From positions 1,024,001 to 1,088,000 of the forward strand of contig OZ239628.1 of the NCBI GenBank assembly GCA_965195345.1: a stretch of 64,000 bases of DNA, given 5' to 3'. Positions 16,112 through 53,008 of this stretch are shown one piece after another. The notes beneath the pieces are model-generated. The model was given only the letters and a program-made list of their open reading frames with translations, made no database searches and had not been told where the DNA came from. The stretch's first letter is position 1, and each line of letters opens with the position of its first letter. The position numbers and the translations under genes were made by a program. The stretch is from an uncultured Thiomicrospira sp. (GTDB lineage Bacteria > Pseudomonadota > Gammaproteobacteria > CAKMZV01).

Positions 16112-16139
16112 TATTTGGAAAACAAGCGTCAATATTGGG

Positions 16140-16156
16140 TGGTACAATTTGCGCGC
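16140..16156 (+). promoter_or_regulatory. Putative stable-RNA promoter for tRNA-Met
   Basis: Extended -10 TGgTACAAT followed by GC-rich discriminator (GCGCGC). Confidence 0.55.
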
Positions 16157-16165
16157 TGTTTTATC

Positions 16166-16242
16166 GGCTATATAGCTCAGTTGGTTAGAGCGCATCACTC
16201 ATAATGATGAGGTCCCTGGTTCAAGCCCAGGTATAGCCACCA
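16166..16242 (+). tRNA. tRNA-Met (CAT), elongator type
   Basis: GGCTATATAGCTCAGTTGGTTAGAGCGCATCACTCATAATGATG...GTTCAAGCCCAGGTATAGCCACCA: 77 nt cloverleaf, encoded CCA, resembles enterobacterial metT. Confidence 0.96.
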
Positions 16243-16312
16243 AATTTCTCCTCTCGCACACTCGATTGGTATTAATCTTTTGTATCAAAATATTTCTTGT
16301 ATCTAAACTATT

Positions 16313-17704: not shown

Positions 17705-17819
17705 ACGGCATTTGTTTAAACAATGTTATTAGACATTAAGACTGTCAAATGATTACGAGCATATGCTTGGCATTTACCATTTTTTTTTAACGATAAGAAT
17801 GTGTGTTCAATTCAGTAAA

Positions 17820-18506
17820 CTAAAAATTATACTGAACACCAAATCGGGTATTAAAGTTGCCAACCAAGACTAAAGTGGTTTCGTCACTTCCAGATCCAAA
17901 GAGTGCTTCAGCGCCAACTTTTTCTGCCGCGAAAAAGTAAGGGCGATCAACCATAAAATTAAATGCAAAACTATCGGTTAAATACCAATTTAAACCTACT
18001 TGATATCCGAGTACAATGCCTGCCACATTTTGTGAGAAGCCAGAAACGCCTAAATTTGGATTCTCCACACTGACTGTCGAATAGCCGAGGTGCCCCCCAA
18101 ATAAAAATTCCAAAGATTCAACGCGCACAGCCTTGTCATAGTTTATGGTTAAAGCAAGGAAATTTTTGAATTGCGTTAACTCTGTTCCAGTAGAAGCATT
18201 GACATTTCTATCATCTAAAGGGGTTGGTGAAATAATGTTTTGCTCACCAACATAGCGCAATCGTCCGTATAGATAATAATCATTTTTTTTCCCACCACCA
18301 ACGCTTAAATCCATTCCGAAAGGTGTAGAGCCACTCCCAAAATTAAAAACGCGTAGATCAGAACCCGCGCTGGATCGTTGATTTTCGCCATGCAATTCTA
18401 AATAGTGATGCACTAAATTAAATCGAAGAAATCCTTCTGCAAAAGCTGACTGCGGTAGGAATAATTGAAAACCTGCAATTAGGAAAAATAAAAATGCTCT
18501 CTTCAT
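17820..18506 (-). CDS. Hypothetical small outer-membrane beta-barrel protein
   Basis: Signal peptide ending AFA, alternating beta-strand pattern, C-terminal FGVQYNF; SD GAGGTG. Confidence 0.7.
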   Translation of the reverse strand: MKRAFLFFLIAGFQLFLPQSAFAEGFLRFNLVHHYLELHGENQRSSAGSDLRVFNFGSGSTPFGMDLSVGGGKKNDYYLYGRLRYVGEQNIISPTPLDDRNVNASTGTELTQFKNFLALTINYDKAVRVESLEFLFGGHLGYSTVSVENPNLGVSGFSQNVAGIVLGYQVGLNWYLTDSFAFNFMVDRPYFFAAEKVGAEALFGSGSDETTLVLVGNFNTRFGVQYNF

Positions 18507-18579
18507 TTTTTCACCTCTGTGAAATTATTTTAGATTGATTGTCAAACTCCAGACTGGAGTGAACCTCTAGTCTTGCCGC

Positions 18580-18608
18580 ATTGTATACAAATTGCAGGAC
18601 TTATTCAA
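18580..18608 (-). promoter_or_regulatory. Putative sigma70 promoter for the beta-barrel gene
   Basis: Minus strand TTGAAT, 17 nt, TACAAT, then GC-rich GCGGC. Confidence 0.55.
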
Positions 18609-18785
18609 TTGCTTGTGTACTATTTTCGATAATTCTTAAAGTCCTTTCAAGAGATATTTCAGAACAAGCGCATATATTTGACGAATTATAGACTGATGCT
18701 ACAGATATTTTTAAATATATCGTGCTGGTATAATGACCCACAATCATTCTAATTCAAAAGCCATATCATTAATATTTAAAGTACT

Positions 18786-24258: not shown

Positions 24259-25095
24259 TCAACCTCGTGTTTGAGGACCATTCCACCTCAACCCATTTGA
24301 CATGTAAGTGTGGAAAAATTCAAGGTTTCTATATTCCGTGCTTTGAGGCTTAAATGGTTTGGCTCGGATGTTTTTTTGACAACCAACATATCTGCGATGT
24401 AAAGTACCCAAATTTCCCCATTTTTTACGGTATACCGGAAAGTGTGAAGTTTGACCAATGACGCTTGATAGCACATTAGCTCGCGCTCTATAACCGGCAT
24501 AATAAACGTGGCAGTCGGCACATGCCATATTCAGTTGCCCACGTTTTCCATAAAAAAGATTCTTCCCTTTTAGATAAGCGTTTTTTGCACCTTCACTTGA
24601 TATGTCTATGTTGATTTGTTTTTCCCGCGCTTCGAATGACAGATAAGCTGCTAGATTAGCAATCGCTCCTTTTTGCCAGCCAAAAGGTATTTCACCGTTG
24701 GCTACTCGACACTCATTAAGTGCTAATTCAAGCGTTATAACCTCAGCCCTTTCATTACTATAGCTAGGAAAACTTGGACGAATATTATCAACGCTCATAC
24801 CTGGAAAGCAACTGGCGTATGTTTTTCCATTACTAAAAGTAGTATTCCACTCGTCTTCACCTTTGGTAATGAAGTCTTCGTAAGGTGGAAAGTCTGCTTC
24901 TGTATCTTCCCACTGCTCACGCAGATCAGGATCAAAAACATAGTTACCGTTGATGTAATCTGAAGTCTCTATAGAAGAGTATTTGTTTGAAAAATAGTCC
25001 CATAGTCTTTGCTTGTCTTCTCCTGGAGTGGCACTGTAAGCAGAAAGAACGAATAACGTACTTCCTAATCCTGCAAAAAAAGTTCTCAGTTTCAT
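24259..25095 (-). CDS. soxA: SoxA cytochrome c subunit (monoheme type)
   Basis: RGQLNMACADCH, FPVYR.KW, RRYVGC..NIRA, Y.NLEFF..YMSNG; signal peptide. Confidence 0.95.
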   Translation of the reverse strand: MKLRTFFAGLGSTLFVLSAYSATPGEDKQRLWDYFSNKYSSIETSDYINGNYVFDPDLREQWEDTEADFPPYEDFITKGEDEWNTTFSNGKTYASCFPGMSVDNIRPSFPSYSNERAEVITLELALNECRVANGEIPFGWQKGAIANLAAYLSFEAREKQINIDISSEGAKNAYLKGKNLFYGKRGQLNMACADCHVYYAGYRARANVLSSVIGQTSHFPVYRKKWGNLGTLHRRYVGCQKNIRAKPFKPQSTEYRNLEFFHTYMSNGLRWNGPQTRG

Positions 25096-25119
25096 ACTAA
25101 TCCTTTAAAAATAGTGGAG

Positions 25120-25425
25120 TTATTTTACCTTTGCCTTACCTGATCCAGTTTTTCCGTTGTTATCCACATAACTTAGTTCGATAAAGTCACCTTTTTCTCC
25201 TCGTAGCTTCAAGCCTATGAAAGGGTTTTTAGAAACTGCTGTACTCATCTCACCCACTGAAGCAATCTTATCATTATGTTTAATAGTTACTTGTGTAATG
25301 TAGTTGGCTGGAATTAATTTGCCTGTTTTTTTGTTTTTACGCAATCCAGTTTCCATGGGGTGCTTAATCAAAGATCTAACATTAATCAAACCTTTTTTAA
25401 GGTTAGCTCGTATTTTCACGCTCAT
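25120..25425 (-). CDS. soxZ: Thiosulfate oxidation carrier complex protein SoxZ
   Basis: HPMETGLRK, IPANYI, VSKNPF, YVDNNG. Confidence 0.95.
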   Translation of the reverse strand: MSVKIRANLKKGLINVRSLIKHPMETGLRKNKKTGKLIPANYITQVTIKHNDKIASVGEMSTAVSKNPFIGLKLRGEKGDFIELSYVDNNGKTGSGKAKVK

Positions 25426-25457
25426 AATTTTTTCTCCTGAAATTAGCTAATAATCGT

Positions 25458-25925
25458 TTAACCGCCACATCCGCCAATAGTCACTTTGATTTCTTTTTCC
25501 ACAGACTCCAACTGCCCAGAGGTCGTTTCAAGTACTGCTAAAACTTTGGAGGTTTTTCCCATTTTTATTCGAGTTTTAAGAAATGGAACCGCATCTTCTT
25601 CAAATACATAACTGCTGGCAAGAGGGCGTGGATTATTTTCAACAAAAACAGCCACTTTGCGGATATCTTGTCTTTTTGACGCATCAACTTCAATAGAGAC
25701 TACTAGACCATTTTCCGCAACTGCTGGTGTTTTAAACTTAACATTTTTTGCGGGAACATGCACACTGCTGCCAAAATATGCTTCCATTGCTTTGGGTATT
25801 GATTCTTCACTGAAAGCTTTCTCGTTCCAAGCCGCATTTGCGACTGTTCCGTTTAATAGCGCTGTTCCAGTGGCTAAAATAGCTGATGTTGCTAGACTTC
25901 CTTTTAGAAAAATTCTGCGTTCCAT
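25458..25925 (-). CDS. soxY: Thiosulfate oxidation carrier protein SoxY
   Basis: Tat signal ERRIFLK, AENG, NPRPL, RIKMGKTS, C-terminal KVTIGGCGG arm. Confidence 0.97.
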   Translation of the reverse strand: MERRIFLKGSLATSAILATGTALLNGTVANAAWNEKAFSEESIPKAMEAYFGSSVHVPAKNVKFKTPAVAENGLVVSIEVDASKRQDIRKVAVFVENNPRPLASSYVFEEDAVPFLKTRIKMGKTSKVLAVLETTSGQLESVEKEIKVTIGGCGG

Positions 25926-25942
25926 AAATTCTCCGTATATAG

Positions 25943-26314
25943 TTATAGAGTGTGTATATAAGCTGTAATAGCTCTTATCTCCTTTTCGGTTAGCATTAAA
26001 TGCTTACCAAAAGGAGGCATAATTGAGTTTGGATTGATTTTTGAGGCATCAAATATTTGATTGTAAAGCTTTTCCTCTTCAGGGAAACGAGCCATCATAC
26101 CAACCAAAGGCGGCCCAATAGTTCCAGCCAAAGTCGCTTTCTTAGGATCTGCGGTCGGCATGGCATGGCAAGCGATGCAGTTTCCTTTACCTCTGTTAAA
26201 AGCTAATTTTTCTCCTTCTTTAATGAGATCTTCACCTGAATATGCCACTGTTGTTACGCCAAAAAAAGCAGTAAACAGTGCAATATTTACTCCAAGTAAA
26301 ACCATTTTTTTCAT
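25943..26314 (-). CDS. soxX: SoxX cytochrome c subunit
   Basis: KGNCIACH, GTIGPPL, NPNSIMPPFGK. Confidence 0.95.
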   Translation of the reverse strand: MKKMVLLGVNIALFTAFFGVTTVAYSGEDLIKEGEKLAFNRGKGNCIACHAMPTADPKKATLAGTIGPPLVGMMARFPEEEKLYNQIFDASKINPNSIMPPFGKHLMLTEKEIRAITAYIHTL

Positions 26315-34372: not shown

Positions 34373-34903
34373 ATGATTAAAATAGGTCTAGTTACAGTGT
34401 CAGATCGTGCCAGTAAAGGCGAATACCAAGATATGGGTGGTCCAGCAATGCAAGCATGGTTGAATAAGGTGCTTACGGTACCTTGGCAAGCGGTAAATTG
34501 TGTAGTTAGTGACGATAAGCCCATTGTTGAGGCATGTTTAATTGAGTTGTGTGATCAAGAACATTGCTCGCTTATATTAACCACTGGAGGAACTGGACCT
34601 GCTCCGCGCGATATTACTCCAGAAGTTACGCAATCTGTGTGTGAAAAAATCTTACCTGGTTTTGGTGAGTTGATGCGACAAAAATCGCTTCAACATGTAC
34701 CCACTGCCATCTTATCAAGACAATGTGCGGGTATTCGCAAAAACTGCTTGATTATAAATTTACCTGGAAAGCCAAGTTCGATTTCTGAATGTCTTGAAGC
34801 CGTTTTTCCAGCTGTTCCGTATTGTCTTGACTTGATTGGTGGAGGATACTTAGAAACAGATGCTTCAGTTATTACCAGCTTTAGACCAAATTCAAAAAAA
34901 TGA
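34373..34903 (+). CDS. mog: Molybdopterin adenylyltransferase
   Basis: VSDRAS.G.Y.D, TTGGTGPAPRD.TPE, PGFGELMR, NLPGKP, VPYCLDL. Confidence 0.95.
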   Translation: MIKIGLVTVSDRASKGEYQDMGGPAMQAWLNKVLTVPWQAVNCVVSDDKPIVEACLIELCDQEHCSLILTTGGTGPAPRDITPEVTQSVCEKILPGFGELMRQKSLQHVPTAILSRQCAGIRKNCLIINLPGKPSSISECLEAVFPAVPYCLDLIGGGYLETDASVITSFRPNSKK

Positions 34904-35715
34904 GAGAAAATATGACAACTAACAAAAATATTGTACTGAGTGAATTGAATGATAACGGTATTCTACGTCTAACCTTAAATGATAGTCAGCGGAGAAATGT
35001 TTTATCCGAATCGATGATAAATGAGCTTACTGAAGCCTTTAATGATGCTAAGAAAAATAATGAAGTACGCGTTATAGTTCTTGCTGCAAACGGTCCCGCC
35101 TTTTGTGCTGGTCATGACCTCAAAGAAATAACTAATGCACGCGCTCAAGAGGACGCTGGACAATCTTATTTCAAAAAAATTCTTAATCTTTGTTCACAGC
35201 TTATGCAAGTGATAGTAAATAATCCTAAGCCAGTTATAGCTGAAGTTGCAGGTATTGCGACTGCTGCGGGGTGTCAATTGGTCGCCAGTTGTGATCTTGC
35301 AATAGCGACACGTGAAGCACGATTTGCCACGCCCGGTGTTCACATCGGACTTTTTTGTTCTACACCAATGGTAGCGCTTTCTCGAAATGTATCCAATAAA
35401 CAGGCCATGGAGATGTTATTACTTGGTGATTTTATTACTGCAGATAGAGCTTGCAGCATTGGATTAATTAACAAAGCAGTAGACCAAAAAGAATTAACTG
35501 TCGAAGTAATGCAAATGGCTGAAAAAATGGCTGCTAAATCTTCTACGACTTTAGCTATGGGTAAGGAAGCTTTCTATGTGCAAAAAGAGATGCCGCTTGA
35601 TGAAGCTTATGTATACGCTTCAAAGGTGATGGTCGCAAATATGCTTAAGGCAGATGCAAAAGAAGGCATTAGTGCATTTATCGAGAAAAGGAAACCTCAA
35701 TGGCAAATTCTTTAA
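34900..35715 (+). CDS. Enoyl-CoA hydratase/isomerase family protein
   Basis: FCAGHDLKE, ATAAGCQLVASCDLA, FATPGV.IGLFCSTP. Confidence 0.9.
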   Translation: MRENMTTNKNIVLSELNDNGILRLTLNDSQRRNVLSESMINELTEAFNDAKKNNEVRVIVLAANGPAFCAGHDLKEITNARAQEDAGQSYFKKILNLCSQLMQVIVNNPKPVIAEVAGIATAAGCQLVASCDLAIATREARFATPGVHIGLFCSTPMVALSRNVSNKQAMEMLLLGDFITADRACSIGLINKAVDQKELTVEVMQMAEKMAAKSSTTLAMGKEAFYVQKEMPLDEAYVYASKVMVANMLKADAKEGISAFIEKRKPQWQIL

Positions 35716-37328
35716 GCATTTATGACAGCGGGTTGGATAAAAATCCAGCGAATTATCAACCGCTTACTCCTCTGGTTTTTTTGCAAAGATCGGCTTCTGT
35801 TTATCCTGAACATTTAGCAATAATTCACGGTAGGCAGCGAATTTCGTACCAACAATTTTATAATAGATCACGTCAATTAGCGAGTGCTTTAAGTAAGCGT
35901 GGAATAGGGCGCAACGATACTGTTTCAGTAGTGCATTCGAATACTCCTGCAATGCTTGAGGCGCATTATGGTATCCCAATGAGCGGTGCTGTTCTGCATT
36001 CAATCAACACGCGTCTTGATTCTAAAGTAATGGCTTTCCAATTGGATCATGCTGAGTCGAAAGTAGTTATTGTTGACCGAGAATTCTCTAAGGTTGTAAA
36101 GGATGCTTTGTGCTTGTCTAAAATTGATCCGTTGGTTATAGACTATGATGATTTGGAGTTTCCTCAAGAAAATCAGGCAATAGGAAGTATTGATTATGAA
36201 GACTTTATAGCACAGGGGGAAGAGGATTTCTATTGGAAAATGCCAGAAGATGAATGGGATGCTATATCCGTGAATTATACTTCAGGTACCACTGGTAATC
36301 CCAAAGGGGTCGTATATCATCATCGAGGTGCTTGTTTGCTATCACAAGGAAATGCATTAACAACTTCGATGGTTAAGCATGCGGTTTATCTTTGGACTTT
36401 ACCGATGTTTCATTGCAATGGTTGGTGTTTTACTTGGACTATTAGTGCGATAAATGGCACACACGTTTGTTTGAGACAGGTGAACGCCAAAGCCATTTGG
36501 GACGCGTTGATAGATTTTAAAGTGACGCATTTATGTGGAGCGCCTATCGTGATGCACACCATCCTAAATGCATTAAAAGAAAATGAAAGTCCACTTAATC
36601 ACACTGTTGATTTCTTTACTGCTGCTGCGCCACCGCCTGAACGCGTATTATTTGATATGAACAAAATTGGCTTCAATGTGACTCATTTATACGGACTAAC
36701 TGAAACATACGGTCCTGCTGTCGTCAATGACTGGCATCAAGGTTGGAGTGATTTAGATAGTTCTGAACAAGCACGATTAAAGGCACGCCAAGGAGTACGT
36801 TATCACGCACTGGAATCGCTTGACGTTATTGATCCTAAAACAATGAAGCCAGTACCACGTGACGGTGTCACCTTAGGTGAAGTAATGTTTAGTGGTAATA
36901 TAGTTATGAAAGGCTATTTAAAGAACACTGAAGCAACTAAAGCCGCTTTTTCTGGTGGTTGGTTTCATTCGGGTGATCTTGGCGTTATTCACCCAGATGG
37001 CTATATTCAGCTCAAAGACCGCTCTAAAGACATAATTATTTCTGGTGGGGAAAATATTTCATCAATTGAAATTGAAGATGTTCTATATAAGCATCCAGCG
37101 GTTTCCGTTGCTGCGGTAGTAGCTAAGCAGCATGAGAAGTGGGGTGAGACGCCATGTGCATTTATTGAATGTAGACAAGGAAAGAGTACGAATGCAGAAG
37201 ACATGGAAAAATGGTGCAGACAGCATCTTGCATCCTATAAAGTTCCTCGCACATTTATTTTTATGGAAATCCCTAAGACATCTACAGGCAAGATTCAAAA
37301 ATATTTATTGAGAACTAGTCTCACATAA
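35700..37328 (+). CDS. Acyl-CoA synthetase (AMP-forming), DmdB1-like clade
   Basis: LDKNPANYQPLTP N-terminus, YTSGTTGNPKG, YGLTETYGP, GWFHSGD, PKTSTGKIQK. Confidence 0.88.
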   Translation: MANSLSIYDSGLDKNPANYQPLTPLVFLQRSASVYPEHLAIIHGRQRISYQQFYNRSRQLASALSKRGIGRNDTVSVVHSNTPAMLEAHYGIPMSGAVLHSINTRLDSKVMAFQLDHAESKVVIVDREFSKVVKDALCLSKIDPLVIDYDDLEFPQENQAIGSIDYEDFIAQGEEDFYWKMPEDEWDAISVNYTSGTTGNPKGVVYHHRGACLLSQGNALTTSMVKHAVYLWTLPMFHCNGWCFTWTISAINGTHVCLRQVNAKAIWDALIDFKVTHLCGAPIVMHTILNALKENESPLNHTVDFFTAAAPPPERVLFDMNKIGFNVTHLYGLTETYGPAVVNDWHQGWSDLDSSEQARLKARQGVRYHALESLDVIDPKTMKPVPRDGVTLGEVMFSGNIVMKGYLKNTEATKAAFSGGWFHSGDLGVIHPDGYIQLKDRSKDIIISGGENISSIEIEDVLYKHPAVSVAAVVAKQHEKWGETPCAFIECRQGKSTNAEDMEKWCRQHLASYKVPRTFIFMEIPKTSTGKIQKYLLRTSLT

Positions 37329-37381
37329 TTTCCTTAAAAGACAGCAGTGTTAGTGACTTTTCTTAAAGTAGGGCAATAATT

Positions 37382-37416
37382 TTCATACTTTGAGGGTCGC
37401 TTAAGTATAATGCGCC
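37382..37416 (+). promoter_or_regulatory. Putative stable-RNA promoter upstream of the tRNA-Leu transcript
   Basis: TTCATA, 18 nt, TATAAT (37406-37411), followed by GC-rich discriminator GCGCC. Confidence 0.55.
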
Positions 37417-37417
37417 T

Positions 37418-37510
37418 TGTTCGTAAAAAGTTATTCTTAATTGCTCGTTATTGAATAATAACGATAAAGAATGACGTACAAAATATATACGAACAGCACA
37501 CGGCGGTGCT
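37418..37510 (+). ncRNA. Candidate structured RNA / tRNA leader (long interrupted hairpin plus small hairpin)
   Basis: Nested stems 37418-37425/37488-37495, 37430-37438/37467-37475 and 37445-37452/37457-37464, plus AGCAC/GTGCT hairpin 37495-37510. Confidence 0.4.
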
Positions 37511-37528
37511 ACAAAAAATCTTTACGTA

Positions 37529-37613
37529 GCGGGAGTGGTGAAATTGGTATACACGCTGGATTTAGGTTCCAGTGCCTCACGGCGTGAGAGTTCGAGTCTC
37601 TCCTCCCGCACCA
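37529..37613 (+). tRNA. tRNA-Leu (TAG)
   Basis: GCGGGAGTGGTGAAATTGGTATACACGCTGGATTTAGGTTCCAG...GTTCGAGTCTCTCCTCCCGCACCA: 85 nt, long variable arm, encoded CCA. Confidence 0.96.
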
Positions 37614-37658
37614 TTAATCAAAAGCACAAAGCTTAAGCGATTAAAATCTATAAAAAAA

Positions 37659-38861
37659 TTAGAACCTTTTAGGGATGTCAATTTCCTTTCCGCGAACAAT
37701 CTTACCTGTCTTGTCATACATAGGCAAGGTGCAAAGTGTGCCGTTATTTAGCATGCCATCACTGCATTGAACTTGCACACTATCACCGATTTGAAAATGT
37801 ATGTTATCCATGCGTACAATTGCCACTCCGCATTGTAGATATGGAGAATAAGAACTAGAGCATACTTTCGCAACAGTTTGTTTGTCTATGAGAACACTGC
37901 GACCTAATTCAGCAATGCCATTTTCTGTTTTTAGACCTACAGTGCGTGGATCCTTTGCCGCTTTCAATAATGCTTCTTTGCCAAAGAATTTTGTTTTGTT
38001 AAAGTCGACCAAATGTCCAAGACCTGCATCAAATGGGGTAGTAGTTTCATCAAAATCCGATCCAGCATTGAGCAATCCTGCTTCAATTCGTCTTGTGCGG
38101 AATGCTTCAGCGGAAGTTGGCATTAAATTAAAAGGCGCGCCTGCTTGCAATATTTTTTCTCCAATGGCATCACTGTTATGATGAGGTTCTAAATAGAACT
38201 CCCAACCCAATTCGTTAGTAAAGCCAGTGCGAGTAATAACAACTTCTTCTCCTGCTATTGCTACACGAGCCATGTCAAAATAGTTGAATTTTTCTGGTAA
38301 ACATTTTCTATCTATAGCATTTTCCAGAACCTTGAGAGCATTCGGTCCTTGTACTTGAGAGACCCAAATACCCGTGTCACTTGCCTCAACGTTTAAATTT
38401 TCAGAGTGTGCTTTTATCCACGAAATAACATCGCCATCTCCTTGTGCAAACCAAAATCGATCTTCCTCTACTTGCACGAGTACTCCATCGGTAATCATGC
38501 CTCCATTGTGGTCACAAACAAATTGATAAGAGCATCGTCCTATTTTGTGTTTTCTTATGTCACGAGCAAAAATTAAGTCGCATAATTTCCGAGCATCTTT
38601 TCCACGAATATCAACCGGTAATTCACCGGTATGGCGCATGATGACATTAGTGCGTACTTGCCAATACACTTCATCAGCACTGTAGTTCTCCATTTTATTT
38701 GCAGCAAGCCTTCGGTTATATACCATATATTTTGGTTTATAGGGTAATTCCTGATGGATAAGTGGATGCGGTGCCATTGCACGAGAAAATTCATTGGGAA
38801 CACCGTTTTTTACAGGCATTGCCGATGCATAAATATCTAGATTCTGGAGGAGTTTTGTCAT
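37659..38861 (-). CDS. GcvT-family folate-dependent aminomethyl/methyl-transferase, DmdA-related
   Basis: GGMITDG, QVQGPNA, TRTGFTNELGWE, RRIEAGLL..G.D, TPFDAGLG, F.GKEAL, LPMYD. Confidence 0.8.
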   Translation of the reverse strand: MTKLLQNLDIYASAMPVKNGVPNEFSRAMAPHPLIHQELPYKPKYMVYNRRLAANKMENYSADEVYWQVRTNVIMRHTGELPVDIRGKDARKLCDLIFARDIRKHKIGRCSYQFVCDHNGGMITDGVLVQVEEDRFWFAQGDGDVISWIKAHSENLNVEASDTGIWVSQVQGPNALKVLENAIDRKCLPEKFNYFDMARVAIAGEEVVITRTGFTNELGWEFYLEPHHNSDAIGEKILQAGAPFNLMPTSAEAFRTRRIEAGLLNAGSDFDETTTPFDAGLGHLVDFNKTKFFGKEALLKAAKDPRTVGLKTENGIAELGRSVLIDKQTVAKVCSSSYSPYLQCGVAIVRMDNIHFQIGDSVQVQCSDGMLNNGTLCTLPMYDKTGKIVRGKEIDIPKRF

Positions 38862-45483: not shown

Positions 45484-47547
45484 TTATGACTGCTTTTTGG
45501 GGATGGGCTGTTTGATCAATGCGTCAACAGCAACGACTCCATTTCCTTCTGATAGTACTAATAGAGGGTTAATGTCTAACTCAAATATAGGATGACAATC
45601 AACGTGTTCAGTGATTTTTGTGATTGCACACACCAGTGCTTCAATGTCGCCTTTAGGTCGATTTCTATAACCAGAAAGCATAGGAAAACACTGCAATGAC
45701 TCTATGGCTTTCTTAATATCCTCTTTATTAGTAGGAAGAAGAAGAGTGCGTGTATCTTGCAATAGCTCGACAAAAACCCCACCAAAACCAATGACCAGCA
45801 CCTGACCAAACAGTTGATCATGTTTAATGCCAACAATCATTTCTGCCACAGCCGATGTAATCATTTTTTCAAGCAAGAAAACATCACTTAATGCGGTCAT
45901 TTCTTCAACAGCTGTATTAAGTTGATTGGCGTTTAATATGTTTAGGCGAACTCCTCCATAATCACTTTTGTGCCCAATTTTATCAGAGTGTATTTTCAGT
46001 ACTACGGGATAGCCACTTTTCTCAGCAAAAAACACAGCATTTTTTGAGGTACATACGTATGAATTAGGCGTCGTTAAGCCAGCATCCTTAAGCCATTTTT
46101 TACTGTCAAATTCATTAAGTTGTACACTTCTAAGATCGTCTAAATAATGCTGTTTAATAAGAAAAGGCTTGTTGGAAACATGAGAGATTTTAGTGGCTAT
46201 ATTGACTGAGTGAGCAATGGCTTTAAGTCCGTCATTTAAGCCTTGTAAAGGGGTGATTCTTGCATGAATCAAACGATCACGAACTGTTTCTGGTAGTGAC
46301 TCAGGCAGCGTTGAAATAACAACGACTGAGGTATGACTTGACTCCTTTGCGGAAATTAAAGCGCGTTCGGTTACCTCCCAAGAAATGATTGAACGATCGT
46401 CAATGTTTGGGTAGTCAATAACTAAAGCTACGCAGTCATAGCCATCGTCAAGGACAGCCTTAAAACACTGTTTCTGTTTCTCAAAGTCCCCCCAAATATA
46501 AGTATGATAATCCAAAGGATTGCTTATGTGGACATTTTCACCAAGTATTTCAGAGAGTTTTCGCTGACTTTCATTTGAAGGAAAGGGCATAGATAAGCTT
46601 GACTCAGATACCGCGTCAGCAACTAAAGCAGCTTCGCCACCCGAGCAACTGAGTGACATAAACTTATTGCCTCGAATAGGGTGACTTAAAGCCAATAATT
46701 TAAGCGTCTCCATGAATTCGGTCAGTGAATCAATGCAGATAATTCCTATGCGTTCAAACATTGCCGTGTAAAGGCGGTGTTCACCAGCAAAAGAGCTGGT
46801 GTGACTAAGCGTGAGATTGCTACCTGATTCGGATTTTCCTGATTTAATAACAATTATTGGTATGTTTTTCTCAAAAGCGATATGGCAAGTCTGTATAAAG
46901 GCATTAACGTTAGTAATGGCTTCAATATATAACCCTATAGCAGTAACTCGTGCATCGTCTAACAATGTGATGATTAGATGGTGTGCGTCGATAACAGCAC
47001 GGTTTCCTATAGTAATTAGATGGCTAATAGGCGTGCTTCGATCGTTGAAGGACAATGATAGCGCAATATTTCCGCTTTGCATTATGACAGCAGCTCCTCT
47101 ATCAACGCGTTTCAAACCATGAAGATCTGGCCAAAGCGCTACGCCATCAAGATAGTTTAAAAAGCCATAACAATTGGGACCAATGGTCGCAAAATTAGAA
47201 GAGGCTGAGACGAGTCTATTTTGCATTGCTTGCCCGTGTGGGCTATGCTCAGCAAAGCCTGATGTATAGCACACTGCGCCGCCTGCTCCCATATCACTCA
47301 GTGCTTGAATATCATTTATTGCAGATTCGGGTGGAATGGCGATAAACGCAGCATCTGGGATGCTGGGTAGTTGAGTGACGCTTGAAAAGCATTTGATTCC
47401 TGCAAGAGAGTCTCTTTGAGGATTTACGGCCCATATTTTTCCAGAAAAACCTAATTTAAGGCACTGTTCTATAACCTTCTCTCCCTCCGTTCCTCCAATA
47501 ACTACAATGCTTCGAGGATTAAGAAGGCGCTTTAAATTTTCGATCAT
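45484..47547 (-). CDS. ADP-forming acyl-CoA synthetase (acetate-CoA ligase family, fused alpha-beta)
   Basis: CoA-binding domain, GPNCYG, QSGN, SHT, SGGEA, NPLDYH, HKSD.GGV, LDINPL, VAVDA. Confidence 0.88.
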   Translation of the reverse strand: MIENLKRLLNPRSIVVIGGTEGEKVIEQCLKLGFSGKIWAVNPQRDSLAGIKCFSSVTQLPSIPDAAFIAIPPESAINDIQALSDMGAGGAVCYTSGFAEHSPHGQAMQNRLVSASSNFATIGPNCYGFLNYLDGVALWPDLHGLKRVDRGAAVIMQSGNIALSLSFNDRSTPISHLITIGNRAVIDAHHLIITLLDDARVTAIGLYIEAITNVNAFIQTCHIAFEKNIPIIVIKSGKSESGSNLTLSHTSSFAGEHRLYTAMFERIGIICIDSLTEFMETLKLLALSHPIRGNKFMSLSCSGGEAALVADAVSESSLSMPFPSNESQRKLSEILGENVHISNPLDYHTYIWGDFEKQKQCFKAVLDDGYDCVALVIDYPNIDDRSIISWEVTERALISAKESSHTSVVVISTLPESLPETVRDRLIHARITPLQGLNDGLKAIAHSVNIATKISHVSNKPFLIKQHYLDDLRSVQLNEFDSKKWLKDAGLTTPNSYVCTSKNAVFFAEKSGYPVVLKIHSDKIGHKSDYGGVRLNILNANQLNTAVEEMTALSDVFLLEKMITSAVAEMIVGIKHDQLFGQVLVIGFGGVFVELLQDTRTLLLPTNKEDIKKAIESLQCFPMLSGYRNRPKGDIEALVCAITKITEHVDCHPIFELDINPLLVLSEGNGVVAVDALIKQPIPKKQS

Positions 47548-47571: not shown

Positions 47572-48354
47572 TTATCGTCCTTTCCAAACGGGAGGGCGCT
47601 TTTCTGCAAATGCACGTGATCCTTCTATCTGATCTTCACTGCTGTAGAGCTTTTTGACCGTTGCGTATTCTTCTTTTGCAATGCGGGTGATAACTTCGTC
47701 AAAATTTTTGTTCTCACTATCGCGTACCACTTCTTTAATAGCAGCATAAACTAATGGCGGACCTTCAGCCAATAAACGTGCCATTTTCCAGCTTTCTTGC
47801 ATTAAATTCTCAAATTTAACAATATGATTAACTAAGCCCCAGCGATGCGCTTCTTCTGCGTCTATCCATCGACCTGTTAGCAGCATTTCTATTGCTATGT
47901 GCCAAGGGATGCGTTTAGGTAATTTGATTGAAGCAGCATCGGCCAAAGTTCCTGAATTGATCTCGGGAAGGGCAAAGGTTGCAGTGTTTGAGGCAATTAT
48001 GATGTCAGCGCTGATAGCTATTTCTAATCCACCACCACAACATATGCCATTCACTGCTGCAATAATAGGCTTGTTTAAATTTGGCAATTCTTGCATCCCA
48101 CCAAAACCACCAATGCCATAATCGCCTTGCACTGGGTCTCCTGCTGCCGCTGCTTTTAAGTCCCATCCTGCGCAGAAAAATTTCTCACCAGAGCCCGTTA
48201 AAATTGCAACACGCAATTTAGGATCATCACGGAATGAGGCAAAAACCTCTCCCATTTTTCGACTAACAGCGTTGCTAATAGCATTTGCTTTCGGATTGTC
48301 TATAGTGACTTCAAGTATAGAGCCATCTACTCTGGTTTTAATAATATTATGCAT
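47572..48354 (-). CDS. caiD: Carnitinyl-CoA dehydratase-like crotonase
   Basis: PKANAI...SRKMGEVF..FRDDP.LRVAILTG.GEKFF.AGWDLKAAA, CaiD-like signature; AFAEKRPPVWKGR. Confidence 0.8.
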   Translation of the reverse strand: MHNIIKTRVDGSILEVTIDNPKANAISNAVSRKMGEVFASFRDDPKLRVAILTGSGEKFFCAGWDLKAAAAGDPVQGDYGIGGFGGMQELPNLNKPIIAAVNGICCGGGLEIAISADIIIASNTATFALPEINSGTLADAASIKLPKRIPWHIAIEMLLTGRWIDAEEAHRWGLVNHIVKFENLMQESWKMARLLAEGPPLVYAAIKEVVRDSENKNFDEVITRIAKEEYATVKKLYSSEDQIEGSRAFAEKRPPVWKGR

Positions 48355-48362
48355 AGCGTTTC

Positions 48363-49544
48363 TCAATTATTGGAATTTTTCTGACGTTCTTCAAAAGGTC
48401 TTAATAATTCGCGACTTATTATATGGCGTTGAATTTCAGAGGTGCCATCCCAAATACGTTCCACTCGTGCATCTCTCCAAAACCGTTCAAATGGCAAATC
48501 AGACATTAATCCCATGCCGCCATGAATTTGAATTGCTTCATCGGTTACTTTAGCTAACATTTCAGTAGCAAACAGTTTTGCACTTGAGATTTCACGGTTC
48601 GCATACTTTCCTTGATCTAATAGGGAAGCGGCACTGAGTGTTAGTAAGTCGGCAGCATCAATTTGAGTTATCATATCAGCCAACTTGAAAGAAACTCCTT
48701 GAAATTTTCCTATCGATTGCCCAAACTGTTTTCTCTCAATGCAATATGGTAGAGTTTCTTCTAAACAGCGTCTTGCTCGACCTACACAACTTGCAGCTAC
48801 AGATAGCCTTGTTGATTCAAGCCACTTATTTGCAATATCAAATCCCTTATGCACTTCCCCCAAAACTTGCGATTTGGGTAAGCGGCATTGTTCAAAGCGC
48901 AAAATGCTATTGTTGTAGCCTCTGTGTGATATTGATTGGTAACCGGGCAATATTTCGAAACCTTTGGTATTACGGTCAACTAAAAAGCAAGTAATGCGTT
49001 TTTTTAAGCCACGTGTACTCTCTTCTTCACCACTGGCGACAAATACAATCACAAAGTCTGCAATATCGGCATGGCTTATGAAATGTTTACTGCCATTGAT
49101 AATCCAGTCATCTCCACAAGCTTTCGCCGTACAACGCATACCACGCACATCGGACCCTGCATCTGGTTCAGTCATTGCGAGGGCATCAAATTTTTTTCCA
49201 GTAATCGCAGGATATAGGTATTTTTCGCGCTGCTCTTCATTACAAGCCATAAGGATGCCGGATGGGCGACCAAAAAAAATGCTTAACGCCATTGAAGTTC
49301 GACCTAATTCACGCTCAACCAAAGTAGATTCAAGGTGATTTAGTCCACCGCCTCCAATTTCTTCAGGCATGTTCGATGCAAAAAAGCCTAAATCACGGAC
49401 TTTTTTAACAAGAGTGGCTCCTAACTCTTTAGGGACAACCCCTGTACGCTCAATTTCCTTCTCGTGTGGAATCATTTCTTGTTCGCAGAATTTTCGTACA
49501 GTATCTACGATTAAAAATTGCTCTTCATTGAGGGTAAATTGCAT
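48363..49544 (-). CDS. Acyl-CoA dehydrogenase
   Basis: AMTEPDAGSD, NGSKHFIS, RKQFG..IG.FQ, QIHGGMG, RIWDGTSEIQR. Confidence 0.93.
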   Translation of the reverse strand: MQFTLNEEQFLIVDTVRKFCEQEMIPHEKEIERTGVVPKELGATLVKKVRDLGFFASNMPEEIGGGGLNHLESTLVERELGRTSMALSIFFGRPSGILMACNEEQREKYLYPAITGKKFDALAMTEPDAGSDVRGMRCTAKACGDDWIINGSKHFISHADIADFVIVFVASGEEESTRGLKKRITCFLVDRNTKGFEILPGYQSISHRGYNNSILRFEQCRLPKSQVLGEVHKGFDIANKWLESTRLSVAASCVGRARRCLEETLPYCIERKQFGQSIGKFQGVSFKLADMITQIDAADLLTLSAASLLDQGKYANREISSAKLFATEMLAKVTDEAIQIHGGMGLMSDLPFERFWRDARVERIWDGTSEIQRHIISRELLRPFEERQKNSNN

Positions 49545-49570: not shown

Positions 49571-49894
49571 TTAATTTGAAGTGATGAGGTATAGAGTAAG
49601 TGAAGCAGTGAGAAAAATAGCAGCAATTAACCATACCGGTTGTTTTTGTTTTTTTGGATTTGAAATAGAGGCGTCTGTATCAGCACTGTTGTTGTCATAT
49701 TCGAGTAGCAACGGCAGAGCTTTTTGGTAGTTTTCCTCATCGACATAAACACGAGCAAAGTCCATGCTCGCTAATTCTCCAATTCCTCCTTGAAGGTATT
49801 GCCCGCTGACATGACAATTTATGCCGTCGGCTTCAAGCATACCCGAGACAATGTATGCTTCGGTTATATTATTTGCACGGTACACTTCTTTCAA
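49571..49894 (-). CDS. DUF2007 domain (PII-like) protein with C-terminal membrane anchor
   Basis: VYRANNITEAYIVSGML...GI..., G.YLQGGIGEL, V.V.EE; TTG start with SD GGAG. Confidence 0.8.
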   Translation of the reverse strand: MKEVYRANNITEAYIVSGMLEADGINCHVSGQYLQGGIGELASMDFARVYVDEENYQKALPLLLEYDNNSADTDASISNPKKQKQPVWLIAAIFLTASLTLYLITSN

Positions 49895-49902
49895 AAGAAC
49901 TC

Positions 49903-51366
49903 CTAATAAATACGGTCTTTAATACCCATAAGTACGTATTGGCACTCTAAATACTCATCTAATCCGTATTTTGAACCTTCACGACCTAAACCTGACTGCT
50001 TCACTCCACCGAAAGGCGCGACTTCAGTCGATATGATTCCTTCATTTACTCCAACTATGCCACAATCAAGCGCTTCAGATACGAGGAATGCTCTAGTAAG
50101 GTTTTGAGTGCAGAAATAGGCAGCTAAGCCAAATTCAGTATTATTTGCTTTAGCGATGACTTCATCATCTGTTTTAAAAGTAATGATTGGCGCAACTGGT
50201 CCAAAGGTTTCTTCATTGTTAATTAATGCGTCAGCAGAAACATTTTTCAAAATAGTTGGTTCGAAGAATAACTTTCCATTGTGGTGTCGCTTACCACCAA
50301 CGATTATTTCAGCACCTTTAGCAACAGCATCGCTGATGTGCTCTTCTACTTTTTCTAAAGCGTTTTGGCTAATAAGTGGACCTTGAGTAGCGCCTTCCTC
50401 AAAACCATTTGAAGTATGGAGTTTTTTAACTTTCTGACTCAATTTTTGTGCGAAAACTTCTGCAACATCTTCATGAACGTAAAATCGGTTCGCACAAACG
50501 CATGTCTGCCCCGTATTACGAAACTTACAAATCATTGCAGCATCTACTGCTGTGTCTAAATTAGCGTCTGAAAAAACAATAAAAGGAGCATTTCCACCCA
50601 ACTCGAGGGATAGCTTTTTAAGTGTAGGGGCTGACTTCTCCATTAGGAGCTGTCCTACTTTAGTAGAGCCAGTAAAGGATATTTTTCGCACAATATCACT
50701 TTTTGTCATTACATTAGAGATAACCGAAGAGTCTCCACAAACAATATTTATTACTCCTTTAGGTATGCCTGCATCTTCAGCAAGTTTAACAATTGCTATC
50801 GCACTTAAAGGTGTTAAGCTTGAAGGTTTAATGACACAAGTACAGCCAGCAGCAAGTGCTGGAGCGATCTTGCGAGTGATCATTGCTACTGGGAAGTTCC
50901 AAGGCGTAATAATCCCAACAACGCCTATAGGTTTTTTATTGACTAAAATACGTGCATTTACATTATGCGTTGGAATTAAATCTCCATATGCACGAACACC
51001 TTCTTCTGCAAACCATCGTAAGAAGTTAGCAGCATAAGTAATTTCTCCTTTTGCTTCCGTTAAAGGCTTACCTTGTTCAGTGGTCATTATGGTTGCAAGA
51101 TCGTCTGCATTATCAAGTATTAATTGATACCAGCGCATTAAGAAATCTGACCTTGTGCGTGCCGTGTGTGAACGCCAAGTAGCAAAGGCAACGTTAGCGT
51201 CATTAATTGCTTTTTCGGTATCCGAAGCAGAGCAACTAGGTATGCTTGCAATGATGTCAAGCGTAGCAGGATTTGTAACTGTAAAAGTTTTTTCAGAACT
51301 AAGCCACTCACCGTTAATGTAACATTTGTTTGGTAAAAGTGAAGTATTTTGGATATTTGAGAGCAT
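49903..51366 (-). CDS. gabD: NAD(P)-dependent succinate-semialdehyde dehydrogenase-like aldehyde dehydrogenase
   Basis: ITPWNFP..MITRK, SFTGST, LELGGNAP, KFRNTGQTCVC, EETFGP, GREGS.YG. Confidence 0.85.
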   Translation of the reverse strand: MLSNIQNTSLLPNKCYINGEWLSSEKTFTVTNPATLDIIASIPSCSASDTEKAINDANVAFATWRSHTARTRSDFLMRWYQLILDNADDLATIMTTEQGKPLTEAKGEITYAANFLRWFAEEGVRAYGDLIPTHNVNARILVNKKPIGVVGIITPWNFPVAMITRKIAPALAAGCTCVIKPSSLTPLSAIAIVKLAEDAGIPKGVINIVCGDSSVISNVMTKSDIVRKISFTGSTKVGQLLMEKSAPTLKKLSLELGGNAPFIVFSDANLDTAVDAAMICKFRNTGQTCVCANRFYVHEDVAEVFAQKLSQKVKKLHTSNGFEEGATQGPLISQNALEKVEEHISDAVAKGAEIIVGGKRHHNGKLFFEPTILKNVSADALINNEETFGPVAPIITFKTDDEVIAKANNTEFGLAAYFCTQNLTRAFLVSEALDCGIVGVNEGIISTEVAPFGGVKQSGLGREGSKYGLDEYLECQYVLMGIKDRIY

Positions 51367-51375
51367 AATTTTCTT

Positions 51376-51879
51376 TTATTTATTGAGGGTTGGCGTATAG
51401 AAAGGGTTGCTGGGGTTTTTCATGGCCTCTTGTATTTCTTCTTCGGTTGGATCGCCTTTTAGGGCGCGTTGAATAGCTGTTTTCATGGCAATGTGATTGT
51501 TATGGTAGATTTCATCAGCATTGTTTGCTTCTGGGTTGACCCAAACTGCTGCAATAATACACCAGTCATTCGCAGCACACTCTGGTAGTGTTTTTTCATC
51601 GATGCACTCTTGCACTCCACGTGCCACTCCTGCTTGAGCGGGGCCCCAAGTCAAATTAGCGTGTTCATCGCTACGCATGTCAACTTTTGCAGCAAATAAG
51701 GTGGCTGGTTTGACGGGAACGTTCGGTTTATGGATAGCCATAAAAGGGATGTATCCCATGCGTGGAGCCGCTGCTGATGCAGTAAGTCCCGTTCCAACAG
51801 GTCCATTCTTATCACCAATAAATGCATTGATGTGTGCTGCATTAGCACCACTTCCGATGAAAGCCTCTCCTATATACAT
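51376..51879 (-). CDS. fae: Formaldehyde-activating enzyme (Fae) homologue
   Basis: IGEAF.G.G..AAHIN..IG...GP, PN...KP.TL...K, WGPAQAGVARGV, V.V.P, AI.RA, NPF end. Confidence 0.82.
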   Translation of the reverse strand: MYIGEAFIGSGANAAHINAFIGDKNGPVGTGLTASAAAPRMGYIPFMAIHKPNVPVKPATLFAAKVDMRSDEHANLTWGPAQAGVARGVQECIDEKTLPECAANDWCIIAAVWVNPEANNADEIYHNNHIAMKTAIQRALKGDPTEEEIQEAMKNPSNPFYTPTLNK

Positions 51880-51892
51880 ATTTTCCTCTTAG

Positions 51893-53008
51893 TTATATTG
51901 TATTATGCGGTTCAACAACCATACGTAATGCTTTATTTGTTCGAACCTTAGTAATTGCCTCATTTATTTTATTTAACGGAACGACGTCAGTGACTAGTTC
52001 GTCAAGTAATAACTTTCCTTGTTGATAAAGATTGGCAATCATTGCAAAGTCTCTTTGAGGGTTTGCGCTGCCATAAAAACTGCCAGTGATGATTTTTTCC
52101 TCACGTGGTATTTTTAAAGCAGGTAATTTTACTTCAGCACCATCTGGAGCTATTCCAATGTAAACGATAGTCCCTGCACGTGCGGTTATATCGTAAGCCT
52201 GTCGCTGAAGATCAGTATTTCCTATGGCTTCAAATACGTAATCAGCACCATGATTATTGGTAAGTTCTTTAATGGCATCAACAACATCCTCTTTTTTGGG
52301 GTTGATGAAATGTGTTGCACCAAATAGCATAGCATGATCTTTTTTCTCTTCAACCGCATCGATACCAATAATCATTTCAGCTCCAGATAATCGAGCACCT
52401 TGAGCTATGTTTAGACCCACGCCTCCCATACCATAAATAACAACGCTACTACCCGGTCGTACCTTAGCAGTGTTTACGACTGCTCCTATACCAGTCATAA
52501 CAGCACAACCAATAAGAGAAGCGGGCACAAAAGGTATGTCTTCATTTAACTTTACACAGCTTGCGCCAGGTACAACGGTGTATTCAGCCCAAGTTGATGT
52601 GAAAGAATAGTGATAGATCGTTTGATTATCTTTTGACAAGCGAGAGGTGCCATCAAGCAAAGTGCCATCAAGCACGATAGGTGCTGACGCATCGCATAAA
52701 TGGGGTTTTCCAGTGTAACAAAAACGGCATTTTCCACATTCTGGTGCCCACGAAAGGGCAACATGATCTCCTGGTTTTACGTGTTTAATATTTTTGCCTG
52801 TTTCAATGACTATGCCAGCCCCTTCATGACCCAATACAGCGGGTAGAGGAACGGACATGGAACCAGTAATGACGTGAATGTCACTATAACAAACTCCCGT
52901 GGCTTCAATTTTGACTAATACCTCATCATCTTTGTGTTGCGCTAATTGAATTTTTTCAATAACTTGAGGTTTTTCAATCTCATAACAAACAGCTGCTCGT
53001 ATTTCCAT
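51893..53008 (-). CDS. Zn-dependent alcohol dehydrogenase (MDR family)
   Basis: GVCYSD, LGHEGAG, CGKCRFC..G.PHLC, IGCAVMTG.GA, GMGGVG. Confidence 0.92.
   Translation of the reverse strand: MEIRAAVCYEIEKPQVIEKIQLAQHKDDEVLVKIEATGVCYSDIHVITGSMSVPLPAVLGHEGAGIVIETGKNIKHVKPGDHVALSWAPECGKCRFCYTGKPHLCDASAPIVLDGTLLDGTSRLSKDNQTIYHYSFTSTWAEYTVVPGASCVKLNEDIPFVPASLIGCAVMTGIGAVVNTAKVRPGSSVVIYGMGGVGLNIAQGARLSGAEMIIGIDAVEEKKDHAMLFGATHFINPKKEDVVDAIKELTNNHGADYVFEAIGNTDLQRQAYDITARAGTIVYIGIAPDGAEVKLPALKIPREEKIITGSFYGSANPQRDFAMIANLYQQGKLLLDELVTDVVPLNKINEAITKVRTNKALRMVVEPHNTI

Follow-up and report, generated by a model that had tools for sequence, protein, structure and literature searches.

We analyzed a window of 64,000 nt (positions 1,024,001 to 1,088,000 of contig OZ239628.1, assembly GCA_965195345.1) from an uncultured Thiomicrospira sp., in which three co-directional genes encode a Zn-dependent alcohol dehydrogenase (ADH), a Fae (formaldehyde-activating enzyme) homolog and an aldehyde dehydrogenase (ALDH) of the succinate-semialdehyde dehydrogenase (SSADH) type (Table 1). 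The open reading frame (ORF) coordinates agree with the arrangement described in an earlier note on this DNA, here called the original prediction, with gaps of 13 nt between ADH and Fae (51880-51892) and 9 nt between Fae and ALDH (51367-51375). The GC (guanine plus cytosine) content of the trio is 0.40-0.41, compared with 0.35-0.42 across the window, and gives no hint of recent transfer. Scans for promoters and terminators yielded nothing usefully above shuffle expectation. The genes greA and gltX lie upstream of the trio, and the same strand is tightly packed from greA to moeA. Owing to this dense packing, short gaps by themselves define no operon in the genome (G000, a single contig of 1,920,693 bp, 99.71% complete). 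The link between ADH, Fae and ALDH exceeds chance because it recurs in other phyla.

Table 1 The three-gene module and the genes downstream of it (window coordinates)
Gene product	Position	Strand	Characteristics
Zn-dependent medium-chain alcohol dehydrogenase (ADH)	51893..53008	-	371 aa; domains ADH_N and ADH_zinc_N
Fae-family protein	51376..51879	-	167 aa; matches to PF08714 and TIGR03126
SSADH / malic-semialdehyde-dehydrogenase-type ALDH, NAD(P)-dependent	49903..51366	-	487 aa; Aldedh 552.7 bits
DUF2007 protein, small, hydrophobic C-terminal stretch	49571..49894	-	PF09413 53.4 bits; 8 nt past ALDH
Acyl-CoA dehydrogenase	48363..49544	-	best match AcrC-type, 309.8 (cut-off 640); CaiA 168 (cut-off 540)
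Enoyl-CoA hydratase	47572..48366	-	best curated match CaiD NF002936, 297.1 (cut-off 500)
ADP-forming (NDP-forming) acyl-CoA synthetase	45484..47547	-	ATP-grasp_5, Succ_CoA_lig, CoA_binding_2; 4-hydroxybutyrate-CoA ligase model 246 (cut-off 1300)

The Fae-like protein belongs to the Fae family by sequence and by fold. It matches PF08714 with 173 bits over model positions 1-158 of 159 and reaches 154.6 against TIGR03126 (cut-off 118), the model by which NCBI names a Fae. Its AlphaFold2 model has a mean predicted local distance difference test (pLDDT) score of 94 and shows the Fae fold, the best Foldseek matches being 1Y60 and 1Y5Y with template modeling (TM) scores of 0.87-0.92 and root-mean-square deviations (rmsd) of 1.3-1.4 Å. 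Compared with 1Y60, the Fae of Methylorubrum extorquens, the TM score is 0.91 and the rmsd 1.4 Å at 34% identity. A sequence search returned 1811 relatives at 90% clustering, or 746 representative clusters at 50%, with Aquitalea, Pseudogulbenkiania, Allomeiothermus and Actinomadura among the named close ones. The branch to which the query belongs extends over Actinomycetota, Deinococcota, Pseudomonadota and SAR324, among others.

We built a tree of 154 full-length rows from the 80 closest Fae loci, representative proteins and Fae from mch-linked contexts; this and the extended tree below are of the quick-search type, with support by the Shimodaira-Hasegawa-like approximate likelihood ratio test (SH-aLRT) alone. 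The query belongs to a clade of 56 rows (SH-aLRT 98), where its nearest rows come from SAR324 and Desulfobacterales metagenome-assembled genomes (MAGs). All six mch-linked Fae lie in a separate 31-row clade (SH-aLRT 99), outside of which the query stands, and a mostly actinobacterial group of 64 rows is placed beside the query clade. The Fae phylogeny that the original prediction had called for sets the query apart from the Fae linked to mch and tetrahydromethanopterin (H4MPT). When Fae domains from fusions with hexulose-6-phosphate synthase (HPS), dihydrodipicolinate synthase (DHDPS) and short-chain dehydrogenase/reductase (SDR) proteins were added, the canonical side formed a 50-row clade with support of 100. 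These DHDPS-Fae, HPS-Fae and SDR-Fae fusions had been considered as a hint to function and were dropped, as all of them fall on the canonical side. Four representative proteins there (P0141, P0200, P0263 and P0216) join a DHDPS-family aldolase domain to a Fae domain at the C-terminus.

A comparison of alignment columns separates a kept core from a set of clade-specific replacements. Residues E5, H16, K57, P58, T60, K65, G79, Q82 and N128 (query numbering) are kept across the Fae clades, with His at position 16 in 96% of the query clade and 89% of the canonical clade. H16 and Q82 align with the residues taken to be His22, the catalytic His, and Gln88 of M. extorquens Fae. The non-canonical clades consistently carry the replacements E13N, D18N, Q73H, F78W, A84G, A88G, L106W, F113W, H115N and H158N. 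Positions 13 and 18 are near-invariantly acidic in canonical Fae and Asn in the query clade.

The original prediction had noted that no H4MPT pathway genes occur in these 64 kb, and the observation extends from the window to the whole genome. Six-frame searches of the complete G000 returned no match for Mch (PF02289), Ftr (PF01913) or beta-RFAP synthase (TIGR00144), while the same three models were positive in control methanogens. By these models, the H4MPT cofactor and its pathway are not available in G000. A search for the N-terminal domain of MtdB (Mpt_N, PF09176) also gave no match in G000, with the control genomes equally silent. G000 has one Fae gene only. It possesses a genuine FrmA (1806695-1807819; TIGR02818 663.6, cut-off 544) followed by FghA, the pair spanning 1805837-1807819. 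At 97545-107282 we found a trimethylamine N-oxide (TMAO) demethylase (1161.7, cut-off 1100), a TmoX-like ABC transporter that includes an OpuAC binding protein and ProV/ProW-like partners, a formate-tetrahydrofolate ligase and a GmaS-like type III glutamine synthetase; a gene resembling flavin-containing monooxygenases (FMO-like) lies at 82367-83497. The presence of FrmA/FghA and of folate-type one-carbon genes, together with the lack of the H4MPT genes, indicates that G000 handles one-carbon units via folate and glutathione routes.

The same holds for the relatives. Among the 79 genomes that bear the 80 closest loci, Mch is found in two (2 of 50 plus 0 of 29). One of these, Variovorax humicola, has three Fae genes; two of them score about 240 bits, one of which lies 2 kb from mch, and the third, at 181 bits, is the clade member. 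As a control we used 61 genomes of the query's class. Mch is present in five of the eight Fae-matching genomes outside the query's genus (G058, G068, G069, G093 and G106), each with a distant Fae (29-31% identity) only 2-5 kb from Mch, and this proximity stands also without G093. Mch was not found in the other three, namely G064 (75% complete), G083 (where the Fae matches are fragments with a stop codon) and G095, nor in G000 and its two congeners G051 and G052, all three of which carry query-type Fae. A canonical, H4MPT-dependent Fae serving formaldehyde oxidation would explain why the protein passes the Pfam and TIGR03126 equivalog cut-offs and why its relatives are annotated as formaldehyde-activating enzymes. 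This explanation is contradicted by a complete genome without Mch, Ftr and beta-RFAP synthase, by the position of the protein outside the mch-linked clade and by the rarity of Mch in the relatives' genomes, and we regard it as virtually untenable. A complete H4MPT pathway elsewhere in the genome combined with a place in the canonical clade, which the original prediction had named as evidence that would overturn it, appeared neither in the searches of G000 nor in the tree. All the above indicate that the Fae-like protein probably belongs to a non-canonical, H4MPT-independent clade with an aldehyde-linked role that differs from the canonical one.

An inspection of the neighborhoods of the 80 closest Fae loci, taken from GTDB species genomes, revealed the recurrent partners of this clade. 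ORFs within 6 kb of Fae were clustered and the cluster representatives annotated (39 recurrent ones and, after removal of 13 ORFs that were long or over-extended, 132 of the 145 rare ones). In the 55-locus subset that extends 4 kb or more to each side of Fae, an ALDH occurs in 40, an enzyme of the alcohol dehydrogenase type in 42, either of them in 51 and both in 31. The dehydrogenase varies in type and includes aldo-keto reductases (AKR, 18 loci), Zn-ADH (9), SDR (9), Fe-ADH (8), beta-hydroxyacid dehydrogenases (beta-HAD, 8) and GMC oxidoreductases (6). The same subset contains an OpuAC-type binding protein with its ABC partners in 19 loci, an enolase-superfamily protein (MR_MLE) in 18 and an IclR regulator in 17; over all 80 loci the OpuAC binding protein is found in 26, IclR in 19 and a BCCT transporter in one. 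The conserved core is Fae with an SSADH-type ALDH and a variable dehydrogenase, rather than the exact trio of the window. Such swapping of the dehydrogenase family, with Fae and the ALDH constant, would be expected of a Fae-like protein whose site of action is an aldehyde intermediate or a step adjoining it.

Conservation of the neighborhood in other taxa, the absence of which the original prediction had named as a second outcome that would overturn it, is observed. The original prediction is accordingly supported on both counts, while the chemistry that it suggested (hydration, ring opening or imine hydrolysis) is hypothetical. In the SAR324 MAG locus L006, one strand encodes in succession an AKR, an ABC ATPase, two permeases, an OpuAC binding protein, Zn-ADH, Fae and ALDH. 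The order of the trio is identical to that of the window, with identities of 62% for Zn-ADH, 64% for Fae and 56% for ALDH. Orthologs of the window ADH (40-62% identity) stand beside Fae in 10 of the 80 loci, including Acidimicrobiia, and an ALDH at least 41% identical to that of the window is found in 46, in several orientations and phyla. The exact trio is seen in one of the 80 loci. Variants of the core occur on plasmids: Streptomyces clavuligerus has an OpuAC-ABC transporter, fae, an NAD(P) oxidoreductase and SSADH, and Burkholderia sp. YI23 has fae, an AKR, SSADH and a major facilitator superfamily (MFS) transporter. The congeners G051 and G052 carry an isolated ADH-Fae pair (identities of 58% for ADH and 50% for Fae) without ALDH, at a chromosomal site unlike that of G000. 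Here (L107 of G052, 6921-18625, and L108 of G051) the pair is flanked by msrPQ-like genes on one side and, on the other, by a variable island that contains AAA_15/DUF4435, HNH, DUF4062 and DUF711 genes.

The rare clusters add a BCCT transporter, MFS transporters, BKACE, a GFA-family protein and two genes of the aromatic-amino-acid-lyase family. The last two stand by Fae in two actinobacterial MAGs (L065, 8468-9769; L075, 11622-14328), and in L075 the lyase-family gene is followed by one protein of the cysteine-dioxygenase type plus rhodanese. The aromatic-amino-acid-lyase family includes the trimethylamine-eliminating ergothionase. A further SAR324 locus, L002 (6541-14569), shows MarR, a GFA-family protein, an AKR, a 218-aa ALDH fragment, Fae and BCCT, and continues with a KduD-like SDR, a GlcD-like FAD oxidase and an FGGY kinase. 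As L002 holds a second Fae copy, this SAR324 genome has two differently wired Fae-like loci.

The window ADH resembles class III and Rxyl_3153 ADHs and falls below every curated cut-off. Its top-scoring model is TIGR03989 (NDMA-dependent / Rxyl_3153 ADH, where NDMA denotes N,N-dimethyl-4-nitrosoaniline; 352.5, cut-off 440), and against TIGR02818 (S-(hydroxymethyl)glutathione dehydrogenase / class III ADH) it reaches 320.3 (cut-off 543.95). The original prediction had read the strings GVCYSD and PHLCDAS in the ADH and denied it the identity of a formaldehyde dehydrogenase that depends on glutathione. Both strings are present in the translation, and the identity is denied to it also by the TIGR02818 score and by the true FrmA elsewhere in G000. 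The ADH scores about 253 bits against class III ADH structures. In the alignment with plant class III ADH, gkdpeg is matched by gsmsvp with a one-residue gap, and the Arg of gkvr is replaced by Ala. We take the loop in the Asp57 region and Arg115 to be the glutathione-contacting residues of class III ADH; by the alignment, the window ADH does not have them.

These features bear on the possibility that ADH and Fae form an adduct-dependent (form)aldehyde dehydrogenase pair similar to Gfa-FrmA, with the ALDH unrelated. In such a scheme, the action of the Fae-like protein would yield a hydroxymethyl adduct of a thiol or amine cofactor, which would then be oxidized by the class-III-like ADH. The nearest curated families of the ADH, which are adduct-dependent formaldehyde dehydrogenases and nicotinoprotein ADHs, are in line with the scheme, as are the ADH-Fae pairs that stand alone in both congeners and adjacent in Acidimicrobiia and other loci, and the GFA-family gene near Fae in L002. 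However, the ADH remains under all those cut-offs and lacks the DPEG-type loop in the class III alignment. The window-type ADH is also limited to the 10 loci mentioned, with AKR, Fe-ADH or beta-HAD replacing it elsewhere, and no formyl-adduct hydrolase is a conserved neighbor among the annotated clusters. The phyla of the clade, moreover, differ in their thiol, which is glutathione, mycothiol or bacillithiol. We consider a pair of this kind very unlikely.

The window ALDH is an SSADH-type enzyme by TIGR01780 (SSADH subfamily; 685.4, cut-off 646.35) and stays under the GabD equivalog cut-off (NF008415; 678.5 against 828). It scores 620 bits against E. coli GabD (3JZ4) and 603 bits against 8S33, the malic semialdehyde dehydrogenase (MSA-DH) of an Acinetobacter carnitine operon described in PMC11353897. 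According to that report, Cys290 and Glu256 of MSA-DH are catalytic, Arg166, Arg284 and Ser447 form a carboxylate-binding triad, and the triad equivalents of human SSADH are Arg213, Arg334 and Ser498. The window ALDH has the catalytic pair (C289 and E255) as well as the triad (R165, R283 and S446). Among the 46 related ALDHs mentioned above, both Arg are present in 46 and Ser in 45. A second ALDH occurs in 20 of the 80 loci and has Trp/Tyr at the two Arg positions (e.g., L058, 11647-13146); one ALDH of this second type, compared with the PDB, is closest to KauB and PuuC, which are aminoaldehyde dehydrogenases.

A fortuitous adjacency, in which the ALDH is a housekeeping gabD and the three genes form no functional unit, also has to be weighed. 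The window ALDH is the sole GabD-like ALDH of G000, the same-strand packing between greA and moeA makes small gaps the rule, and the ALDH is absent beside ADH-Fae in the congeners. On the other hand, an SSADH-type ALDH accompanies Fae in 46 loci of diverse orientation and phylum, and the three-gene order is repeated in SAR324. Chance adjacency therefore appears highly improbable.

We propose, with moderate confidence, that the window encodes an H4MPT-independent Fae paralog that acts with an NAD(P) dehydrogenase and a C4-semialdehyde dehydrogenase in a short catabolic module. The reaction of canonical Fae, outlined in PMC8879981, is the addition of an amine to an aldehyde, followed by dehydration of the resulting carbinolamine. 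In the module, the dehydrogenase, here a Zn-ADH, would first oxidize an imported small polar compound. At the carbonyl or iminium carbon thus produced, the Fae-like enzyme would next catalyze an addition or an elimination. A carbinolamine, gem-diol or hemiacetal and the free aldehyde would thereby be interconverted, and an amine might be released; this would be the Fae reaction on another substrate, or its reverse. Finally, the ALDH would turn a carboxylate-bearing C4 semialdehyde into a dicarboxylate such as succinate or malate. The family, the fold, the clade, the lack of the H4MPT pathway and the conserved gene partners are observed, whereas we infer the order of these steps, their chemistry and the substrate.

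The substrate is probably an osmolyte-like C4 quaternary-ammonium compound of the choline, gamma-butyrobetaine or carnitine kind. The OpuAC/BCCT transporters, the KauB/PuuC-like second ALDH, the MSA-DH-like triad and the new Trp residues of the clade point to a substrate of this class, and the CaiD-like hydratase, the acyl-CoA dehydrogenase and the acyl-CoA synthetase downstream of the trio point in the same direction. This is the weakest step of the proposal, since these three downstream genes are not conserved by Fae and no importer stands beside the trio of G000. Homoserine betaine, the head group of the lipid DGTS (diacylglyceryl trimethylhomoserine), as the substrate is a speculation, and none of the papers listed in the single literature search on this compound names it. 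BKACE was considered as a sign of the canonical carnitine pathway and dropped, as the one BKACE gene of G000 stands alone.

Several observations weigh against the proposed module. The exact Zn-ADH/Fae/ALDH trio is as rare among the related loci as stated above, and the ADH-Fae pair of both congeners does without the ALDH. The window ALDH, as the sole GabD-like enzyme of G000, could be a housekeeping gabD that came to stand beside Fae by chance, the genome being so compact. The trio of G000 has neither an OpuAC nor a BCCT transporter next to it, the three OpuAC matches of this genome lying elsewhere. The sets of neighbors vary by phylum (MR_MLE, FGGY kinase, FAD oxidase), so that several substrates may be involved. 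Many of the 79 genomes are MAGs of unknown completeness, and the chemistry would be an extrapolation from the reaction of the Fae family. Judged from the sequence, the kept His and Gln would also fit a pterin-type cofactor such as tetrahydrofolate (H4F).

This last point belongs to the main rival of the module, a formaldehyde-activating enzyme that depends on H4F or another universal pterin and to which the dehydrogenases would be only loosely related. Such an enzyme would accelerate the reaction of formaldehyde with H4F in hosts whose methyl-group oxidation runs via folate. The fold is that of Fae with the His and Gln positions kept, G000 yields one-carbon units (TMAO demethylase, TmoX-like transporter, formate-tetrahydrofolate ligase, GmaS-like and FMO-like proteins), and the universality of H4F would agree with the broad distribution of the clade across phyla. 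However, FolD, PurU, Fhs, serine hydroxymethyltransferase (SHMT), GcvT and a DAO-type demethylase are all missing among the annotated neighbor clusters, where a single FTCD_N is the sole folate-related match and the partners are ALDH, AKR and ADH. The two acids E13 and D18, near-invariant in canonical Fae, are Asn in the query clade, and FrmA and FghA of G000 already cover free formaldehyde. An H4F-dependent enzyme is accordingly an unlikely explanation, and the module with a C4-semialdehyde dehydrogenase is the one we favor.

Within this module, a more specific variant would make the Fae-like protein a hydro-lyase that, by Fae chemistry in reverse, expels trimethylamine from a quaternary-ammonium C4 intermediate. 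A betaine of the carnitine or gamma-butyrobetaine type would be activated by a dehydrogenase, a task that an enolase-superfamily dehydratase would take over in other phyla. Water would be added at the N-bearing carbon, trimethylamine would leave, and succinic or malic semialdehyde would pass to the adjacent ALDH; in the window, gamma-butyrobetaine would be fed in by the acyl-CoA synthetase together with the enzymes similar to CaiA and CaiD. The variant is chemically balanced and the context agrees with it, the betaine importers, the ALDH triad, the second ALDH, the Trp residues of the clade and the Tmm/Tdm-type genes of G000 for trimethylamine oxidation all being consistent with it, and we still hold it to be distinctly unlikely. 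If true, it would constitute an oxygen-independent and radical-independent route from betaines to trimethylamine.

The genes that follow the trio on the same strand are a DUF2007 protein, an acyl-CoA dehydrogenase, an enoyl-CoA hydratase, an ADP-forming acyl-CoA synthetase and then moaA/moaD/moeA. The DUF2007 protein has no homolog next to Fae in the 80 related loci. The acyl-CoA dehydrogenase may continue the transcription unit of the trio; it is not conserved by Fae elsewhere, with one weak match in the 80 loci. Its gene overlaps by 4 nt with that of the enoyl-CoA hydratase, for which the best-scoring model among 73 families is the crotonobetainyl-CoA hydratase CaiD, at a score under the cut-off. 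Homologs of this hydratase occur in two of the 80 loci, 6-8 kb away from Fae. For the genes between 45484 and 49544, a route via betaine-CoA (gamma-butyrobetaine) or one resembling DmdC/DmdD is conceivable. In G000, a paralogous pair of acyl-CoA synthetase and enoyl-CoA hydratase is located at 1536213-1539109.

Other parts of the window hold further genes of possible metabolic interest. At 34900-38861, an enoyl-CoA hydratase (PRK08139 392, cut-off 313) overlaps an AMP-forming acyl-CoA synthetase (PRK08162 895, cut-off 677), and the opposite strand encodes a GcvT-family protein similar to DmdA and to the C-terminus of TMAO demethylase (197, cut-off 410). These genes may represent a set for the demethylation of dimethylsulfoniopropionate (DMSP) or another methylated compound. 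At 24259-26314 (minus strand), SoxA (217, cut-off 110) is followed by three small ORFs, possibly other sox genes; SoxA suggests thiosulfate oxidation in this heterotroph-like genome of 1.9 Mb. An M24-family protein at 1920-3083 (plus strand) has the ectoine hydrolase DoeA as its top match, far under the cut-off (174.6 against 575).

In genome and metagenome surveys, fae is taken to mark methylotrophy and the H4MPT pathway. Records from S. clavuligerus and Burkholderia carry the TIGR03126 name "formaldehyde-activating enzyme". As 77 of the 79 relatives' genomes show no match to Mch, the whole query-type branch of Fae is probably mis-annotated. How the name can steer interpretation is illustrated by an ocean metaproteome study in which a detected Fae is taken as evidence of the tetrahydromethanopterin pathway in SAR11 (PMC8889253). 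We found no description of an H4MPT-less Fae clade, or of Fae with ADH, ALDH, betaine or carnitine genes, in a literature survey that had subscription papers and supplements outside its scope. The Fae-ADH-ALDH module and its clade would represent a new functional variant within the known Fae family, one that may have been mentioned earlier. Should the clade catalyze a novel reaction of aldehydes, carbinolamines or C-N bonds during the degradation of osmolyte-type compounds, it would supply a step so far lacking in the cycling of abundant solutes of sea and soil. A new source of trimethylamine would then be possible, with a bearing on osmolyte and methylamine cycling.

The Fae-like protein can be compared with several known systems. 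It is similar to M. extorquens Fae (1Y5Y/1Y60; tetrahydromethanopterin hydro-lyase, EC 4.2.1.147) in its fold, its full-length Pfam match and its His and Gln positions, whereas it differs in its separate clade, its ten substitutions and a host genome without the H4MPT genes searched; its neighbors are ADH, AKR and ALDH and not mch, mtd and fhc. The blcABC (attKLM) operon of Agrobacterium, for the catabolism of gamma-hydroxybutyrate and gamma-butyrolactone, contains an alcohol dehydrogenase, SSADH, an IclR-type regulator and a lactonase, and no Fae-like gene. It shares with the Fae loci the combination of ADH, SSADH and the IclR type of regulator. The Gfa-FrmA-FghA system likewise sets an activating enzyme beside a class-III-type Zn-ADH, but the Gfa fold is unrelated, the window ADH fails TIGR02818 and G000 has its FrmA-FghA elsewhere. 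The fungal ssf cluster (PMC11623301) was considered as a precedent and dropped, as it concerns Gfa and not Fae.

Fae homologs that are dispensable for the canonical step, with no function assigned, have been reported in Methyloversatilis universalis FAM5, where fae2 and fae3 mutants show normal growth on one-carbon substrates (PMC5023235). Fae2 and Fae3 are similar to the query in this respect and differ in that their hosts are H4MPT-containing methylotrophs, in which they have been discussed as candidates for one-carbon shuttling. A further system for comparison is the carnitine operon of A. baumannii (CntAB, 8S33, D-malate dehydrogenase and BCCT), which has an SSADH-type ALDH with the same Arg/Arg/Ser triad and adjoining betaine-type transporters. 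Its MSA-DH clears the C4 semialdehyde that remains once trimethylamine has been cleaved off (PMC11353897). A Rieske oxygenase was not found among the annotated clusters of the conserved Fae neighborhoods. In place of the Rieske oxygenase described for that operon, the Fae loci have the Fae-like protein and an NAD(P) dehydrogenase, and the C-N bond might there be cleaved by the Fae-like protein itself.

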